Source: Methanobacteriota archaeon (lineage in GTDB: Archaea; Altiarchaeota; Altiarchaeia; IMC4; QMZM01). Taken from it: 41,839 bases of DNA. Each line of letters begins with the position of its first letter. Positions within the stretch are counted from its first letter, which is position 1. The translations under genes and the position numbers were made by a program. The DNA lies in contig CAIYYO010000024.1 of the NCBI GenBank assembly GCA_903930485.1, positions 1-41,839 of the forward strand, written 5' to 3'. The notes under the pieces are model-generated. The model saw nothing but the letters and a program-made list of their open reading frames with translations. It did not search any database and was not told the DNA's origin. Below are positions 25,569-31,478 of the stretch, in pieces.

Positions 25569-26063
25569 ATGGACCGGGTAATAAATCTGTTGATTTTCGC
25601 AGTTATTTTGTCGCTTATCCTGTCCCCAGGCTGCGCGCATCAAAGCACAAAGCCGCAAGCTGAAACGACCACAGTCCCTGAAGAGAACCCCGTTCCTACG
25701 GAAAGCCCCATAGCAACGACTACGACTCTTACGAGCTCCAACGGATTCAACTCCTCCATCAACGATTCAGAGGCGAAGTCTACTACGACTACGCTGCCCG
25801 GGGACGTATCGAAGATGATCAATCTGGCGATAAAGAATTTTGAGTACAGCGAGGTCGCGCTGAGGATCCGTAAGGGCGACACGATCGTATGGACAAACCT
25901 CGACACGGTCGCACATACCGTGTCCTCGGACACGGGCGGCGAACTGGATTCCGACACGCTCGTCAGGGGAGAGACTTTCATGCACACCTTCAACAGCCCC
26001 GGGGTATTCAACTACCATTGCAAGATCCATCCGTCGATGAAAGCCAAGGTGATAGTCTCATGA
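25569..26063 (+). CDS. Cupredoxin, second paralog, lipoprotein with a Thr-rich linker
   Basis: 164 aa with an AGGTGA ribosome-binding site, a signal plus LSPGC, and type-1 Cu ligands VAHTV...YHCKIHPSM. Confidence 0.8.
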   Translation: MDRVINLLIFAVILSLILSPGCAHQSTKPQAETTTVPEENPVPTESPIATTTTLTSSNGFNSSINDSEAKSTTTTLPGDVSKMINLAIKNFEYSEVALRIRKGDTIVWTNLDTVAHTVSSDTGGELDSDTLVRGETFMHTFNSPGVFNYHCKIHPSMKAKVIVS

Positions 26064-26395
26064 CTGATGACCGGGCAACGTCCGACGCCATTGTCTTTAT
26101 CTACGTGACGAACCCTTCAAAGAAGGAAGCCGAGCGGATCGCGAAGAGCCTGATGGACAGAAAGCTCGTCGCATGCGCTAACATGTTCCCTATCGAGAGC
26201 ATCTATCCCTGGGAGGGGAAGATCGTGGACGGGAAGGAGTACGCCCTAATATTAAAGACCGTCCCGGAAAAATCCGGGCTGGTCGAGGAAGCCGTGAAGG
26301 AGATGCACCCCTACAAAGTGCCCTGCATAATCACTTTTCAAGTAAGCCCCAACAAGGAATTCGGGAACTGGCTCAGGAGCGAGCTGGGTCCCTGA
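26060..26395 (+). CDS. cutA: Divalent-cation tolerance protein CutA
   Basis: The Met at 26060 forms an ATGA overlap with the cupredoxin stop. The longer ORF from 25889 is an out-of-frame overlap of the cupredoxin gene. CutA motifs are present: VFIYVT..S.KEAERIAKSL...KLVACAN..P..S.Y.W.GKI. Confidence 0.85.
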   Translation: MTDDRATSDAIVFIYVTNPSKKEAERIAKSLMDRKLVACANMFPIESIYPWEGKIVDGKEYALILKTVPEKSGLVEEAVKEMHPYKVPCIITFQVSPNKEFGNWLRSELGP

Positions 26396-26415: not shown

Positions 26416-28317
26416 ATGCCTTCAAAAAACGCACCAACCGCCTTGGAAGATCTGAGAAAAAAGAGCCCGGAGAAATTCCCATCATCGGAAACCGCATTCA
26501 GCCGCATACATTCCGGGGACCACATACTGATAGGCTCGGGCTGCGGCGAGCCTCAATATCTGTTAAAGTCTTTCATCTCGTATGTCCGGGCCAACCCCAA
26601 GGCGATCCTTGATGCCGAAGTATTCCAGTTATGGGCCCTGGGAAACGTTCCTTATGGCGACGAGCGGCTTGCAGAGAACCTGCGCCACAATTCTTTTTTC
26701 ATAGGCTGCGAAGTCCGGGAAGCCGTGAACAAAGGGCTTGCCGACTATACGCCGATCTCTCTTTCAGACGTGCCGGATCTTTTTTTCAGGGGCATCGTGC
26801 CTGTCGACGTCGCTCTCATACAGGTTTCTCCCCCGGACGTTGAAGGATTCATGAGCCTCGGGGTCAGCGTCGACATCGTGAAGTCGGCAGTAAAACAGGC
26901 ATCCCTCGTAATCGTGCAGGTCAACTGCAACATGCCGAGGGTTTCCGGAGACGGACGGCTCCATGCGGACGATGTCGACTATATCCTTCCATGCGATGAG
27001 CCCCTTATCGAATACCGGCCCGAGGTCGACGAGGAGACTGCTGGAAAGATCGGCAACTATTTATCCCGCCTGGTGCATGACGGTGAGACGATACAAGCCG
27101 GCTACGGCGGGCTCGTCTCTTCTGCAGTGGCGCATCTTAAAGACAAGAAGCATCTGGGCGTACATACTGAGCTTTTGTCCGGCGGCCTGGTGAGCCTCTT
27201 GAGATCCGGGGCCGTTGACAACAGCAGTAAGACGGTCAACCCCTGGAAGACGGTTGCATCATTTTGCATGGGTACGCAAGAGGATTACCGATTCCTTGAC
27301 GGCAACACGGGAATAGAGTTCAGGGGAATAGAGTATACGAACGACCCGCTCGTCATCGCCGGGCACGAGAACATGACTGCGATAAACAGTGCCCTGGGCA
27401 TAGACCTGACCGGTCAGGCGACCGAGGAGTCTGTCGGAAAGTCTTTCTACGGCGGGATAGGCGGGCAGGCGAATTATATGCGCGGGGCGGTCCTTTCCAG
27501 GAACGGTAAAAGCATTCTCGTCCTCGAATCGACTGCCGAAGGCGGGAAAGTTTCTCGGATAATGCCTTTCCTCGAAGAAGGCGCCGGCGTCACCTTGAAC
27601 CGCGGCGACGTCCATTACGTGGTCACCGAGTACGGAATAGCATACCTGCACGGAAAGAACATACGCGAGAGAGCCATGGAACTGATATCCATCGCCCACC
27701 CGCGTTTCAGGCCGCACCTCCTCGCAATCGCTAAGAAGAACAATATCGTGTACCCCGACCAGGCTTTGATATCGGGAAAGAACGGAACATATCCCGAGGG
27801 ACTGGAGGCGTACCGGACGACGAGGACTGGGCTAGGCATCCTCCTTCGGCCGGTTAAGATAACCGACGAGCACCTTCTAAAGGACTTCTTCTATTCCCTT
27901 TCAGAGGAGAGCCTCTATCACCGGTTCATTTCTGTTAGGAAAGACATGCCTCACCACAGGCTCCAGGATTATACGGTCATAGACTACGAAAAACGCATGA
28001 TAATACTCGCAGTCTCGCCGGACGAAAAAGACGAAGAACTTATAGGAGTAGGACAATATGATATACTGGAGGACTCCCACACAGCAGAGATCGCCTTCGT
28101 CGTCAGGGACAAATACCAGAACAAAGGCGTGGGTAAAGAGCTTTTGAAATACCTCACGTACATCGCGAAAAAGAAAGGCTTGCTTGGCTTCAAGGCCGCA
28201 GTCCTGCCTGACAATAAAGCGATGACGACGCTCTTCGAAGAGGCCGGATTCGAAGCAGACAAAAAGACCGCCGACGGATTATACGAATACAGATCGATCT
28301 TCAGGAGGAGACAATGA
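26416..28317 (+). CDS. Fusion protein: acetyl-CoA hydrolase/transferase-family domain (4-hydroxybutyrate CoA-transferase-like) plus C-terminal Pat-type GNAT acetyltransferase domain
   Basis: 633 aa with a GGTG ribosome-binding site. The N-terminal ~450 aa carry GVHTE and GGIGGQANYMRGA motifs. The C-terminal ~165 aa carry YHRF...DY.....LAV....ELIGVGQY......TAEIAFVVRDKYQNKGVGKELL...A...G......VLPDNKAM..LFEEAGF, which is typical of the protein lysine acetyltransferase (Pat) GNAT. Confidence 0.75.
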   Translation: MPSKNAPTALEDLRKKSPEKFPSSETAFSRIHSGDHILIGSGCGEPQYLLKSFISYVRANPKAILDAEVFQLWALGNVPYGDERLAENLRHNSFFIGCEVREAVNKGLADYTPISLSDVPDLFFRGIVPVDVALIQVSPPDVEGFMSLGVSVDIVKSAVKQASLVIVQVNCNMPRVSGDGRLHADDVDYILPCDEPLIEYRPEVDEETAGKIGNYLSRLVHDGETIQAGYGGLVSSAVAHLKDKKHLGVHTELLSGGLVSLLRSGAVDNSSKTVNPWKTVASFCMGTQEDYRFLDGNTGIEFRGIEYTNDPLVIAGHENMTAINSALGIDLTGQATEESVGKSFYGGIGGQANYMRGAVLSRNGKSILVLESTAEGGKVSRIMPFLEEGAGVTLNRGDVHYVVTEYGIAYLHGKNIRERAMELISIAHPRFRPHLLAIAKKNNIVYPDQALISGKNGTYPEGLEAYRTTRTGLGILLRPVKITDEHLLKDFFYSLSEESLYHRFISVRKDMPHHRLQDYTVIDYEKRMIILAVSPDEKDEELIGVGQYDILEDSHTAEIAFVVRDKYQNKGVGKELLKYLTYIAKKKGLLGFKAAVLPDNKAMTTLFEEAGFEADKKTADGLYEYRSIFRRRQ

Positions 28318-30443
28318 CCGATAAACCGGACATAACAAGCCTGTTCGAGCCTCGCACCGTAGCGGTTGTCGGAGCCTCCCACAACCCTGAAAAGATCGGC
28401 TACAAGATTGTCGAGAACATAATCGCCTGCGGATACGCCGGCAGGATCTGTCCGATAAATCCCGAAGGCGGCGAGATACTGAAGCTCCCGGTCTACAAGA
28501 ACGTGGGCGACGTCGACGGGGAAATCGACGTGGCGGTCATAACCATCCCCTCGAAATACGTTTACGACGCCGTCAAGGCCTGCGCGGACAAAGGCGTCAA
28601 GTACTCGCTCATAATATCTTCCGGTTTCTCGGAGGTCGGCGACTACGAGAGCGAAAAGAAGATCGTCTCATGCGCGCAGGAAGGCGGTATGCGCATCATC
28701 GGGCCCAACATCTTCGGCATGTATGTCGCTAAGTCCTCGTTCAACGCAACCTTCGGTACAAGGGACGTACGCCCGGGCGGGATAGCGATAATAACCCAGA
28801 GCGGCGCCCTGGGAATATCCCTCATGGGCAAGACGGCGGTGATGAACATAGGGCTTTCAGGGATGTTCTCTCTCGGGAACAAGTCCGACGTAGACGAATC
28901 CGACCTGCTGGAATACCTGATAACCGACGACAGCACGCGGATAATAATGATGTACGTCGAAGGCGTAAAGAACGGCGGCCGTCTTGTGGAGCTGCTCAAG
29001 AAAGCTACCTCAAAAAAGCCAGTGATCGTCATCAAGGCCGGCAGGTCGAAGCGCGGGGCGATGGCGGCTGCATCCCATACCGGCTCCCTTGCAGGTTCGG
29101 ATGCGGTCTTCTCGGACATAATGAAGCAGTGCGGCGTCATACGCGCCGAAAGCATTCAGGAGGCCCTTGACGCGTGCAAGTACATCTCTAATTCCCCTCA
29201 GCCGAAGGGCGAGAATTCGGTCATAATAACTAACGGAGGCGGCATGGGAGTCATGGCAGCCGACGCATGCGAAAAATATTCCGTGAACCTTTACGACAAT
29301 ATAGAAGACCTTAAAAGGACATTTTCAAAAGTCGTGCCGGCATTCGGTTCCGTGAAGAATCCAGTGGATCTTACCGGCCAGGCGACGCTGGAGAACTACA
29401 AGACTGCGATAGACGCGGCGCTGGCGAACAAAGACATCCACACGGTTATATGCCTTGGATGCGAGACAGCGTTCTTCGATGCATCCAAGATAGCAGAGAT
29501 GATTAAAGGGTTGTATTCAAACAGCAAGCCTGCCAAGCCTTTGGTCTATTCGTTTTTCGGCGGCGCAAGGATTGAGGATTGCATAACGAGCCTTAAAGCC
29601 GTCGACATACCGGCGTTCTCCGACGTCTACGAAGCGGTCTCCTGTATGGGTGTATTGTACGAGAACTACAGGAACACGGCTTACGCGACCGAATCCGACC
29701 AGAAGGAAGAACAAGGGATCGACGATCCTTCAATAGACGTGATAGTCAAAAAGGCACTGGGTGAGGGCCGGCACTTCCTGCTGTCTTACGAGGCTGAAAA
29801 AGTCATGGCCGCCGCAGGTATACGGATGCCTAAGAGCTTCCTTGCGAAAGACTTTGACGAGGCCGTGAAATTCGCGGAAAAGATCGGTTATCCCGTAGCG
29901 CTGAAGGTCGTCTCAAAGGATATAATCCATAAAAGCGATGCAGGCGGCGTTGCTTTGAATCTCGAGAACAGGCAGGAGGTTTTGGACGCGTATCAGGTGA
30001 TACTCTACAACTGCAAAAAAGCCAAACCGGACGCAGTCATAGAAGGCGTCTCCGTGAGCGAGATGATGAAGAAGGAAATTGAAACCATCGCCGGCGCGGT
30101 AAGGGATAAATCGTTCGGGCCCGTCGTGATGTACGGCCTAGGCGGCGTGTACGTGGAGATATTGAACGATGTCGCATTCAGGTCTTTCCCTCTAGGCAGG
30201 AAGGACATACTCAAGATGATAAACGAAACAAAGTCGTCGCAGCTCCTCATGGGCGCAAGGGGCGAGAAACGCAAAGACGTCGGCTCCGTCGTGGATGCCG
30301 TGTCAAAGCTCGGAACAATACTCGCAAGGCATGAAGAGATATCTGAAATAGAGATCAACCCGCTCATGGTCTATGAGGACGGGCAGGGGGTAATGGCCCC
30401 GGATGTGCGGATCCTGTTGTCAAAGGGTCCGGAGGCGAAATAG
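28314..30443 (+). CDS. ADP-forming acetyl-CoA synthetase (acetate--CoA ligase, NDP-forming; fused alpha-beta)
   Basis: 709 aa, with its start overlapping the upstream stop in an ATGA. It has a CoA-binding N-terminus (VAVVGAS..P.KIGY), the phosphohistidine loop AAASHTGSLAGS and a C-terminal ATP-grasp region (GYPVALKVVS.DI.HKSDAGGV). Confidence 0.9.
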   Translation: MTDKPDITSLFEPRTVAVVGASHNPEKIGYKIVENIIACGYAGRICPINPEGGEILKLPVYKNVGDVDGEIDVAVITIPSKYVYDAVKACADKGVKYSLIISSGFSEVGDYESEKKIVSCAQEGGMRIIGPNIFGMYVAKSSFNATFGTRDVRPGGIAIITQSGALGISLMGKTAVMNIGLSGMFSLGNKSDVDESDLLEYLITDDSTRIIMMYVEGVKNGGRLVELLKKATSKKPVIVIKAGRSKRGAMAAASHTGSLAGSDAVFSDIMKQCGVIRAESIQEALDACKYISNSPQPKGENSVIITNGGGMGVMAADACEKYSVNLYDNIEDLKRTFSKVVPAFGSVKNPVDLTGQATLENYKTAIDAALANKDIHTVICLGCETAFFDASKIAEMIKGLYSNSKPAKPLVYSFFGGARIEDCITSLKAVDIPAFSDVYEAVSCMGVLYENYRNTAYATESDQKEEQGIDDPSIDVIVKKALGEGRHFLLSYEAEKVMAAAGIRMPKSFLAKDFDEAVKFAEKIGYPVALKVVSKDIIHKSDAGGVALNLENRQEVLDAYQVILYNCKKAKPDAVIEGVSVSEMMKKEIETIAGAVRDKSFGPVVMYGLGGVYVEILNDVAFRSFPLGRKDILKMINETKSSQLLMGARGEKRKDVGSVVDAVSKLGTILARHEEISEIEINPLMVYEDGQGVMAPDVRILLSKGPEAK

Positions 30444-31478
30444 ATGCAAAAGATAATTATCGCTTCTGCAAGCAGAGGCGCAGGGAAGACTTTTGTGACC
30501 GTGGGACTGATGAAGGCGGCCGGGAAGGGTCTCGGCTACATAAAGCCGCTCGGGAACCGGCTAGTCTACTCCCGGAAAAAACTCTGGGACTATGATGCTG
30601 CGCTCATAGCCAAGGTCTTCAAGCTCCAGATGCCGCCGGAAGATCTCACGATAGGCTTCGAGCATGCGAAGATCAAGCACTCATACACGAAGGATGCCGT
30701 GAAAAAGAAGGTCCTCGAGCTTTCGGCCGAAGCGTCGAAGGGCAAGAAAGCCCTCATCATAGAAGCCGGAACAGATTTGTGTCACGGGACAAGCATAAAC
30801 CTCGACCCGATCTCGCTTGCCAAATACGTGAAAGGGAAGATTGTCCTCGTCGTGAACGGGGACGATTACGACGCCCTCGACGATTCGCTCTTCTTCGGCT
30901 CGTGCATCAAGAAGACAGGCGCAGGGTTCGCAGGAGTGATAATAAACAACGTCAAAGACCCGTCGGGGTTCCGGGACCTGTACCTGCCGCGGATCAGGGA
31001 AGCAGGGATAAAGGTTCTTGGGATCATTCCATACAACGACGCCTTAACCCACTACGATGCCGGCTATCTGGCCGATAATCTTTTCTCCAAGACGTTAACC
31101 GGCGAAGCCGGCCTGGGCAAGGTCGTAGAGAATGTGTTCGTAGGAGACGTGTCTTCCACGACGGCTCTCAAGAACCCCTCATTCCATAAGAAAGGCAACC
31201 TCGTCATAACCGGAGGCGACAGGAGCGACATGATCCTCGCGGCCATAGAAACGGGCGCATCATGCGTTATATTGACCAACAACATAATGCCGCACGCGAA
31301 CATAATATTAAAGGCATCGCACGCGCAGGTCCCACTGCTGCTGGTTCCGACCGATACGTACACGACGGCAGTAAGGGTCGAGCACCTCGAGCACATGCTG
31401 ACGGAAAAAGACGAGGAGAAGATCGCAGCCCTGGGCAGGATGGTCAAGAAGCACGTGAAGCTGAAAGAAATATTTTAA
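30444..31478 (+). CDS. DRTGG-domain protein resembling the N-terminal regulatory region of phosphotransacetylase (no PTA catalytic domain)
   Basis: 344 aa; its ATG directly abuts the upstream TAG. It has a P-loop-like ASASRGAGKTFVTVGL and a DRTGG-type LVITGGDRSDMILAAIETGASCVILTNN. Confidence 0.7.
   Translation: MQKIIIASASRGAGKTFVTVGLMKAAGKGLGYIKPLGNRLVYSRKKLWDYDAALIAKVFKLQMPPEDLTIGFEHAKIKHSYTKDAVKKKVLELSAEASKGKKALIIEAGTDLCHGTSINLDPISLAKYVKGKIVLVVNGDDYDALDDSLFFGSCIKKTGAGFAGVIINNVKDPSGFRDLYLPRIREAGIKVLGIIPYNDALTHYDAGYLADNLFSKTLTGEAGLGKVVENVFVGDVSSTTALKNPSFHKKGNLVITGGDRSDMILAAIETGASCVILTNNIMPHANIILKASHAQVPLLLVPTDTYTTAVRVEHLEHMLTEKDEEKIAALGRMVKKHVKLKEIF

Follow-up and report, generated by a model that had tools for sequence, protein, structure and literature searches.

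The classic example of how bacteria control their metabolism by acetylation is the modification of a lysine in acetyl-CoA synthetase. According to a 2021 review and a 2025 paper on the structure of PatZ, the bacterial protein acetyltransferases of the GNAT family fall into five types, of which types I and II carry a dead domain resembling an ADP-forming acyl-CoA synthetase (ACD), type III carries cAMP, ACT or NADP domains, and types IV and V have no regulatory domain; a CoA-transferase partner domain is not in this classification. Such a domain is what we find in a three-gene locus of an altiarchaeotal archaeon, situated in a stretch of 41,839 nt (hereafter the window) of contig CAIYYO010000024.1, assembly GCA_903930485.1, which comprises 1.69 Mb in 321 contigs and is an estimated 78% complete. 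Gene 1 encodes a CoA-transferase fused to a Pat-type GNAT, gene 2 a separate ACD, and gene 3, which we call PtaN, a protein resembling the N-terminal half of phosphotransacetylase (Pta). The best named matches of all three proteins agree with the altiarchaeotal lineage. The three genes, and the cutA gene that precedes them, lie on the forward strand. Judging from these sequences and their relatives, we regard it as an even prospect that the fusion belongs with the Pat-like lysine acetyltransferases, joined here to a new kind of partner, and controls acetate-activating enzymes. It would then represent a further type.

Gene 1 (26416-28317) encodes a protein of 633 residues (P0001), in which Pfam places AcetylCoA_hydro at residues 16-193 (E 2e-40), AcetylCoA_hyd_C at 286-437 (E 3e-58) and Acetyltransf_1 at 519-612 (E 6e-13), with the GNAT domain as a whole spanning about residues 476-616 in the same open frame as the transferase domains. 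An earlier interpretation made without database searches (the sequence-only reading) had proposed precisely this joining of a GNAT to an acetyl-CoA hydrolase/transferase-family domain, and had named a missed stop codon or frameshift as the artefact that might underlie it. Such an artefact is ruled out by the single open frame of 633 codons and by full-length fusion homologues of 620-650 residues in at least 594 species-level genomes, as found in a scan of one genome per species; the fusion relatives listed there are 58-69% identical to the window protein. A word-indexed search with P0001 returned 8000 relatives, of which the best 120 clusters were described: all of them are 618-674 residues long, have the same domains, are 61-69% identical and come from Altiarchaeota, ANME-1, Methanoperedenaceae, Theionarchaea, Bipolaricaulota and WOR-3. 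Still more distant full-length fusions, 31-45% identical and forming dozens of clusters, came from an exhaustive HMMER search against representatives at 50% identity. The best 80 of the at least 594 species-level loci, on which all of our neighborhood counts are based, are spread over about 20 phyla in both domains of life, including Methanothrix, Heimdall- and Hodarchaeota, Lyngbya and Synechocystis, and the carriers include cultured Methanothrix thermoacetophila, with the protein ABK14410.1, and several Synechocystis strains, among them sp. PCC 6714 with WP_238546860.1. Some sources annotate the protein as 'bifunctional acetyl-CoA hydrolase/transferase family protein/GNAT family N-acetyltransferase'. 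The architecture is thus known to annotators; in the literature that we searched, we found no functional study of the fusion, and none of ACD acetylation or of the pairing of an ACD with a DRTGG protein.

Several variations on this architecture were also seen. Paralogous fusions occur in pairs, separated by no more than a few kb, in three genomes (L042, L049 and L060) that come from a member of the Dehalococcoidales, a deltaproteobacterium and a member of the Methanotrichaceae. Two proteins of the representative library (P0247 and P0248, about 960 residues) are CoA-transferase-GNAT fusions with an additional N-terminal extension of about 350 residues that carries 4Fe-4S dicluster motifs, and another (P0333, 568 residues) joins a response-regulator receiver domain to the CoA-transferase alone.

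The GNAT half of the window protein, together with its N-terminal flank (residues 458-623; 27787-28284), is of the Pat type. It aligns with residues 709-874 of PatZ (9it0, with 9isq; E 9e-20), and this alignment takes in the Pat-specific flank (YP..LE...RP...DE..L..F....S.ES.Y.RF); its other matches are PatA of S. lividans (SlPatA, 4nxy/4u5y, E 6e-18), Pat of M. tuberculosis (MtPat, 4ava, E 2e-10) and of M. smegmatis (MsPat, 4orf), and Sulfolobus Pat (SsPat, 3f8k). An AlphaFold2 model of P0001 built from a 107-sequence alignment (pLDDT 87, pTM 0.82; an earlier model from 20 sequences was poor, with pLDDT 62.6) superimposes in Foldseek on the GNAT domain of SlPat, crystallized with the C-terminal domain of acetyl-CoA synthetase (4u5y), with a target-normalized TM-score of 0.94 and a root-mean-square deviation of 1.6 A. 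Glu558 (TAEIAF; codon 28087-28089), the putative general base, aligns with the Glu of the AEF/AEV/AEI motifs of PatZ, SlPatA and MtPat; of 191 fusion homologues, 188 have Glu or Asp at this position and 187-189 keep the QxxGxG acetyl-CoA loop (568-573). The possibility that this domain belongs with small-molecule GNATs, raised by the sequence-only reading against its own assignment, is rejected: the NCBIfam model of mycobacterial Pat (ActPatMycb56) scores 76 bits, as against less than 26 bits for the aminoglycoside, RimI-type and other small-molecule GNAT models, and the PDB matches are Pat enzymes.

The fusion thus shares with the type I/II enzymes (E. coli PatZ/YfiQ, S. enterica Pat and S. 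lividans PatA) a GNAT that is homologous over its full length and has the N-terminal flank, the catalytic Glu and the Q/RxxGxG/A loop of the Pat subfamily, as well as a large acyl-CoA-handling domain in the same chain and a genomic link to acetate-activating enzymes. It differs from them in the nature of the partner domain: the inactive NDP-forming acyl-CoA-synthetase-like domain is missing from the chain, and in its place stands an AcetylCoA_hydro/AcetylCoA_hyd_C unit, a family-I CoA-transferase that keeps its catalytic residues, whereas the ACD is encoded by a separate neighboring gene and has a real enzyme fold with the catalytic His.

This CoA-transferase domain (26461-27726) resembles 4-hydroxybutyrate CoA-transferases. 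Its best PDB match is 3eh7 (E 3e-105), followed by 9vag, 2oas, 3gk7 and Yersinia RipA, and the model fits 3gk7, 2oas and RipA with target-normalized TM-scores of 0.91-0.94. With this group (3gk7, 2oas, 3eh7, 9vag and RipA, 3qli) it has in common the two-lobed AcetylCoA_hydro plus AcetylCoA_hyd_C fold, 36-40% structure-based identity, the Glu of the HTE motif and the glycine-rich oxyanion loop (GxGGQ); the known enzymes differ in being stand-alone proteins of about 435 residues without a GNAT. The sequence-only reading had singled out two points for checking in this domain, the HTE Glu and the altered GGQANY motif. Glu252 (GVHTEL; codon 27169-27171), the putative nucleophile, corresponds in the alignments to the Glu of HTE in 3eh7, 9vag and 2oas. 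Position 252 is Glu in 188 of the 191 homologues and the GxGGQ glycines are present in all 191. As for GGQANY, its Asn353 and Tyr354 replace the Asp and Phe of most members; this variant recurs but is in the minority (Asn in 24 of 191). In one homologue from an altiarchaeotal metagenome-assembled genome (P0010, 68-69% identical), Gly replaces Glu252 (HTGLL), which may be a sequencing error or a natural inactive variant. P0001 stays below the equivalog cut-off for butyryl-CoA:acetate CoA-transferase (TIGR03948; 242 versus 675 bits), and other substrate-defined models, such as that for succinyl-CoA:acetate CoA-transferase, give 82-105 bits against cut-offs of 500-740, such that the protein falls outside of these families. 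The transferase domain looks catalytically competent. Because the catalytic residues are kept in at least 98% of the 191 homologues, both domains of the fusion look alive, unlike the dead synthetase domain of Pat.

Such conservation could be taken to mean that the fusion is first of all a metabolic CoA-transferase working together with the ACD, in which CoA would be moved from an acyl-CoA onto acetate and the ACD would then make ATP, the GNAT being an accessory with a non-protein or N-terminal substrate. What speaks for it is that at least 98% of the members retain the catalytic Glu as well as the oxyanion loop, and that the domain is akin to the 4-hydroxybutyrate and butyryl CoA-transferases (target-normalized TM-scores above 0.9). 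A further point is that papers on Synechocystis engineering treat 'ach', a native gene at the pta locus, as an acetyl-CoA hydrolase; to judge from its adjacency to pta, this gene is probably the fusion, and slr1888 may by its annotation be the fusion too. In Synechocystis salina we find the fusion about 1.7 kb upstream of a full-length Pta. However, overexpression of 'ach' in those papers did not raise acetate but slightly lowered it, and the GNAT is specifically of the Pat type rather than of a small-molecule type. These points, and those on deacetylases that follow, make us consider a primarily metabolic role decidedly unlikely; that the fusion is a plain acetyl-CoA hydrolase is rejected.

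Two divergent proteins of the representative library, of 955 and 1013 residues (P0293 and P0300, mutually 33% identical), unite the CoA-transferase, the Pat-type GNAT and a Hist_deacetyl domain in a single chain, and in both the GNAT is kept while the transferase Glu has been replaced, by Gly in one (GIHSGLL) and by Asp in the other (GIHTDIL), and the GxGGQ loop has been lost. In Lyngbya sp. CCY1209 (L010, 4220-12828), the fusion stands between an AMP-forming acetyl-CoA synthetase (Acs) gene and an adjoining major facilitator superfamily (MFS) transporter gene on one side and a divergently oriented gene for a histone deacetylase (HDAC)-type deacetylase and a second MFS transporter gene on the other. 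A writer and an eraser in one chain, and a deacetylase as a neighbor, are what one would expect of an enzyme of reversible lysine acetylation, and both observations argue against a transferase whose GNAT is a mere accessory. The clustering of an acetyltransferase, an HDAC-type deacetylase and Acs, in Lyngbya as in the triple fusions, is also reminiscent of the B. subtilis acsA-acuABC genes, in which AcuC is the HDAC-type deacetylase. There, however, AcuA is a single-domain GNAT that is not among the PDB sequence matches to the window GNAT, and no CoA-transferase, ACD or PtaN is involved.

Because the triple fusions have lost the catalytic Glu, their sequences would show that the transferase domain is no longer catalytic in some branches. 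This could be extended to the whole family by supposing that the CoA-transferase domain is a ligand-binding regulator without turnover, comparable to the dead ACD domain of Pat or to the cAMP, ACT or NADP domains of type III. In all other multi-domain Pat-type enzymes the extra domain is indeed an allosteric sensor, and the deacetylase fusions without Glu and loop would be instances of it; yet a pure binding domain is not expected to conserve the very catalytic Glu and loop glycines that the main clade retains, which makes us think that binding alone is very unlikely to be the general rule.

Gene 2 (28314-30443) encodes a fused alpha-beta ACD of 709 residues (P0002), for which Pfam finds CoA_binding, CoA_binding_2, Succ_CoA_lig, Ligase_CoA_2 and ATP-grasp_5, that is, the five-domain architecture of such enzymes. 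It matches along its length the Nitrosopumilus ADP-forming 4-hydroxybutyrate-CoA ligase (8wzu, E 1e-127), with which it shares the motif IIHKSDAGGV, as well as both subunits of the two-subunit ACD 4xyl (alpha, E 6e-112; beta, E 2e-53). Its His255 (AASHTGSLAGS; codon 29076-29078) aligns with the phosphohistidine-loop His of 4xyl (AASHTGSIAGS), a residue that is absent from Pat/PatZ and that corresponds, according to the PatZ structure paper, to Leu245 of PatZ. The sequence-only reading had seen here a bona fide ACD, separate from the fusion and with its catalytic His loop, and by its sequence P0002 is apparently a live enzyme. It scores just under the cut-off of one acetate-specific model (TIGR02717, 500 versus 567 bits) and below that of another (NF045494, 522 versus 1200 bits), which leaves acetyl-CoA a candidate substrate. 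A search of the 78%-complete genome for ATP-grasp_5 turned up no other ACD-type gene.

Gene 3 (30444-31478) encodes the PtaN protein of 344 residues (P0003). As the sequence-only reading had it, this is the regulatory half of phosphotransacetylase and nothing more: Pfam finds only the P-loop-like AAA_26 (2-202) and DRTGG (209-314), the N-terminal regulatory module of class II Pta, and no PTA_PTB catalytic domain, for which there was also no match in the 78%-complete genome. The protein aligns with positions 2-366 of the 708 of the class II Pta model PRK05632, and hence with the N-terminal domain of the E. coli and Salmonella enzymes, from which it differs in lacking PTA_PTB and in being paired with an ACD instead. 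Its DRTGG domain also matches that of A. fulgidus AF_1212 (2ioj), which we take to adjoin the characterized A. fulgidus ACD AF1211.

As to how these genes travel, in 35 of the 80 loci, under 23 taxon labels from both domains of life, the next gene downstream of the fusion is the ACD, and in 8 more the ACD is nearby in some other arrangement. In each of the 36 loci where this could be assessed, PtaN comes directly after the ACD and on its strand, a count that includes divergent Nitrospirota pairs in which the ACD is 36-39% and PtaN 28-32% identical to the window proteins. Because PtaN follows the ACD in 36 of 36 loci, ACD-PtaN is the tighter unit and the fusion a frequent partner of it. This strict pairing suggests that the regulatory half of Pta, otherwise unexplained, is a transferable unit that can serve another acetate-forming enzyme. 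The co-occurrence survey that had been proposed on the basis of the sequence thus finds the gene order conserved across phyla, and the idea that acyl-CoA, acetylation and acetate are wired together at one node fits these neighborhoods. Of the loci that lack the ACD, about 10 have an AMP-forming Acs no more than about 2 kb away, and 4 have a SatP/YaaH acetate channel next to the fusion.

What, then, does the GNAT acetylate? The arrangement in the window invites the answer that its substrate is the ACD itself or the ACD-PtaN pair, a 'live-enzyme Pat' whose sensor, dead in Pat, would still be an enzyme next door and under the control of acetylation. The direct succession of fusion and ACD in 35 of 80 loci, their translational coupling in the window, the order of GNAT followed by ACD, which mirrors that of type II PatA, and the alignment of PatZ with residues 7-698 of P0002 (E 4e-74) all lend it some weight. 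PatZ is, moreover, reportedly able to autoacetylate. On the other hand, about half of the fusions, 58-63% identical to that of the window, have no nearby ACD, and several adjoin an AMP-forming Acs. Neither did we find any cassette-specific lysine in the ACD: the eight conserved lysines (including K27, K190, K241, K531 and K540) sit in motifs that are also present in ACD structures from outside of the cassette. The ACD also presumably lacks the PX4GK context known for Pat substrates. The ACD as an acetylation target is thus without specific support, and we consider it an unlikely primary substrate, if one to be kept in view.

The AMP-forming Acs, the canonical substrate of Pat, is by comparison an equally good or better candidate for the target. 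Because identity to the window protein is about 60% both for fusions beside an ACD and for those beside an Acs, one conserved substrate class for both would be the simplest reading of their sequences. The archaeon has one AMP-forming Acs (C210), which at 825 bits exceeds the cut-off, as well as a single HDAC-type deacetylase (C314), and a sirtuin (SIR2) gave no match in the 78%-complete genome. Of 30 genomes that bear the cassette, 25 have an AMP-forming Acs with a score above the curated cut-off, and the other five show mostly partial matches, three of which start at the end of a contig.

On these grounds we propose a model in which the three genes would be one copy of a widespread acetate/acetyl-CoA cassette. 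Gene 1 would be bifunctional, its N-terminal 440 residues forming the family-I CoA-transferase and its C-terminal 175 residues the Pat-type lysine acetyltransferase. The latter would acetylate, and thus switch off, acetate-activating enzymes, most likely the AMP-forming Acs encoded elsewhere in the genome, with the ACD as a possible second target. The CoA-transferase domain would couple acetylation to the acyl-CoA/carboxylate pool, either by binding acyl-CoA or by turning it over, and would in this way take the role that the dead ACD-like domain has in Pat/PatZ. The ACD would convert acetyl-CoA (or a similar acyl-CoA), ADP and phosphate to the acid and ATP, with PtaN probably serving as its nucleotide- or metabolite-sensing partner. 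A cell that possesses both Acs and ACD must avoid a futile cycle that burns ATP, and co-transcribing the ACD with an acetyltransferase that silences Acs would do so; the ATP-wasting Acs/ACD cycle would be prevented by their co-expression, and the HDAC-type deacetylase of the genome could subsequently reverse the mark. It is also conceivable, though we hold it to be highly doubtful, that the fusion, ACD and PtaN form one complex that acts as a functional 'proto-Pat', in which the transferase would make or exchange the acyl-CoA used by the GNAT, the acyl mark on ACD or Acs would signal the kind of organic acid at hand, and Pat would have inherited its dead synthetase domain from such a live neighbor.

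The domain identities, the conservation of catalytic residues, the gene order and the co-occurrence are observations. Several considerations weigh against our model of a Pat-like enzyme that controls acetate activation. No ACD is present in the region examined in 36 of the 80 loci, most of which have no nearby Acs either. The Acs contig of the archaeon's own genome ends before the C-terminal target lysine, and co-occurrence with Acs is weak evidence because many prokaryotes have an AMP-forming Acs, as did 7 of 14 control genomes at scores above the cut-off. The Hist_deacetyl family also holds acetylpolyamine amidohydrolases, such that the triple fusions are no strict proof of a protein substrate. 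The conserved catalytic Glu is more in keeping with an enzyme at work in metabolism than with a sensor alone and, because it is so fully conserved, the acetyltransferase could be secondary to a metabolic role. Finally, it is from sequence that we infer which activities the proteins have, what the GNAT acetylates, what PtaN does, and that the genes are co-transcribed.

With regard to the last of these, the layout of the locus is at least suggestive. The three open reading frames, the ATGA stop/start overlap between genes 1 and 2 (28314-28317) and the abutment of TAG and ATG between genes 2 and 3 (30441-30446) all lie where the sequence-only reading had placed them. GGAGG-like sites occur 5-10 nt 5' of the starts of genes 2 and 3, namely a GGAGG-type site, AGGAGGAG, at 28303-28310 and GGAGG at 30431-30435. 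The motifs that had been quoted (HTE, GGQANY, QNKGVGKELL and ASHTGSLAGS) are every one of them present, and the domain models named for checking (AcetylCoA_hydro/AcetylCoA_hyd_C, Acetyltransf_1, CoA_binding, Succ_CoA_lig, ATP-grasp_5, AAA_26 and DRTGG) all matched. A scan for bacterial promoters and terminators, which is not applicable to an archaeon, gave no more matches than shuffled sequence.

The window also contains a cutA gene (CutA1 family; 26060-26395), which ends 20 nt upstream of gene 1 and is a possible extra member of the transcription unit; gene 1 may be co-transcribed with it. In an Altiarchaeales relative (L001), cutA (319-633) lies 2 nt before the fusion and encodes a protein 57% identical to the window CutA, and the two loci also share synteny of a superoxide dismutase gene downstream. 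Because CutA is absent near the fusion in the other 79 of the 80 loci, cutA is a lineage-specific addition to the cluster. A molybdoenzyme gene lies 55 nt beyond gene 3. The heptapeptide DLTGQAT occurs both in the fusion (residues 330-336; 27403-27423) and in the non-homologous ACD (352-358; 29367-29387), with 17 of 21 nucleotides identical. Gene conversion is rejected as its origin, as cassette ACDs elsewhere vary at this place (D[LI]TG[QEGP]..), and it looks like a coincidence of two native motifs.

Taken together, what is new here is probably a Pat-type acetyltransferase with a new and seemingly active partner domain, set in a conserved cassette at the acetate node. If our model is correct, it would add to the known writers of protein acetylation a further and very widespread type, present in at least 594 species that include anaerobic archaea and bacteria, Methanothrix and some cyanobacteria, and one whose sensor domain would itself be a probably active acyl-CoA enzyme. 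Since cultured carriers exist, this hypothesis is directly testable. The cassette sits at the branch where ATP is either conserved from acetyl-CoA or acetate is assimilated, and how this branch is controlled matters in acetogens, in syntrophs, in methane-cycling archaea and in engineered cyanobacteria alike.

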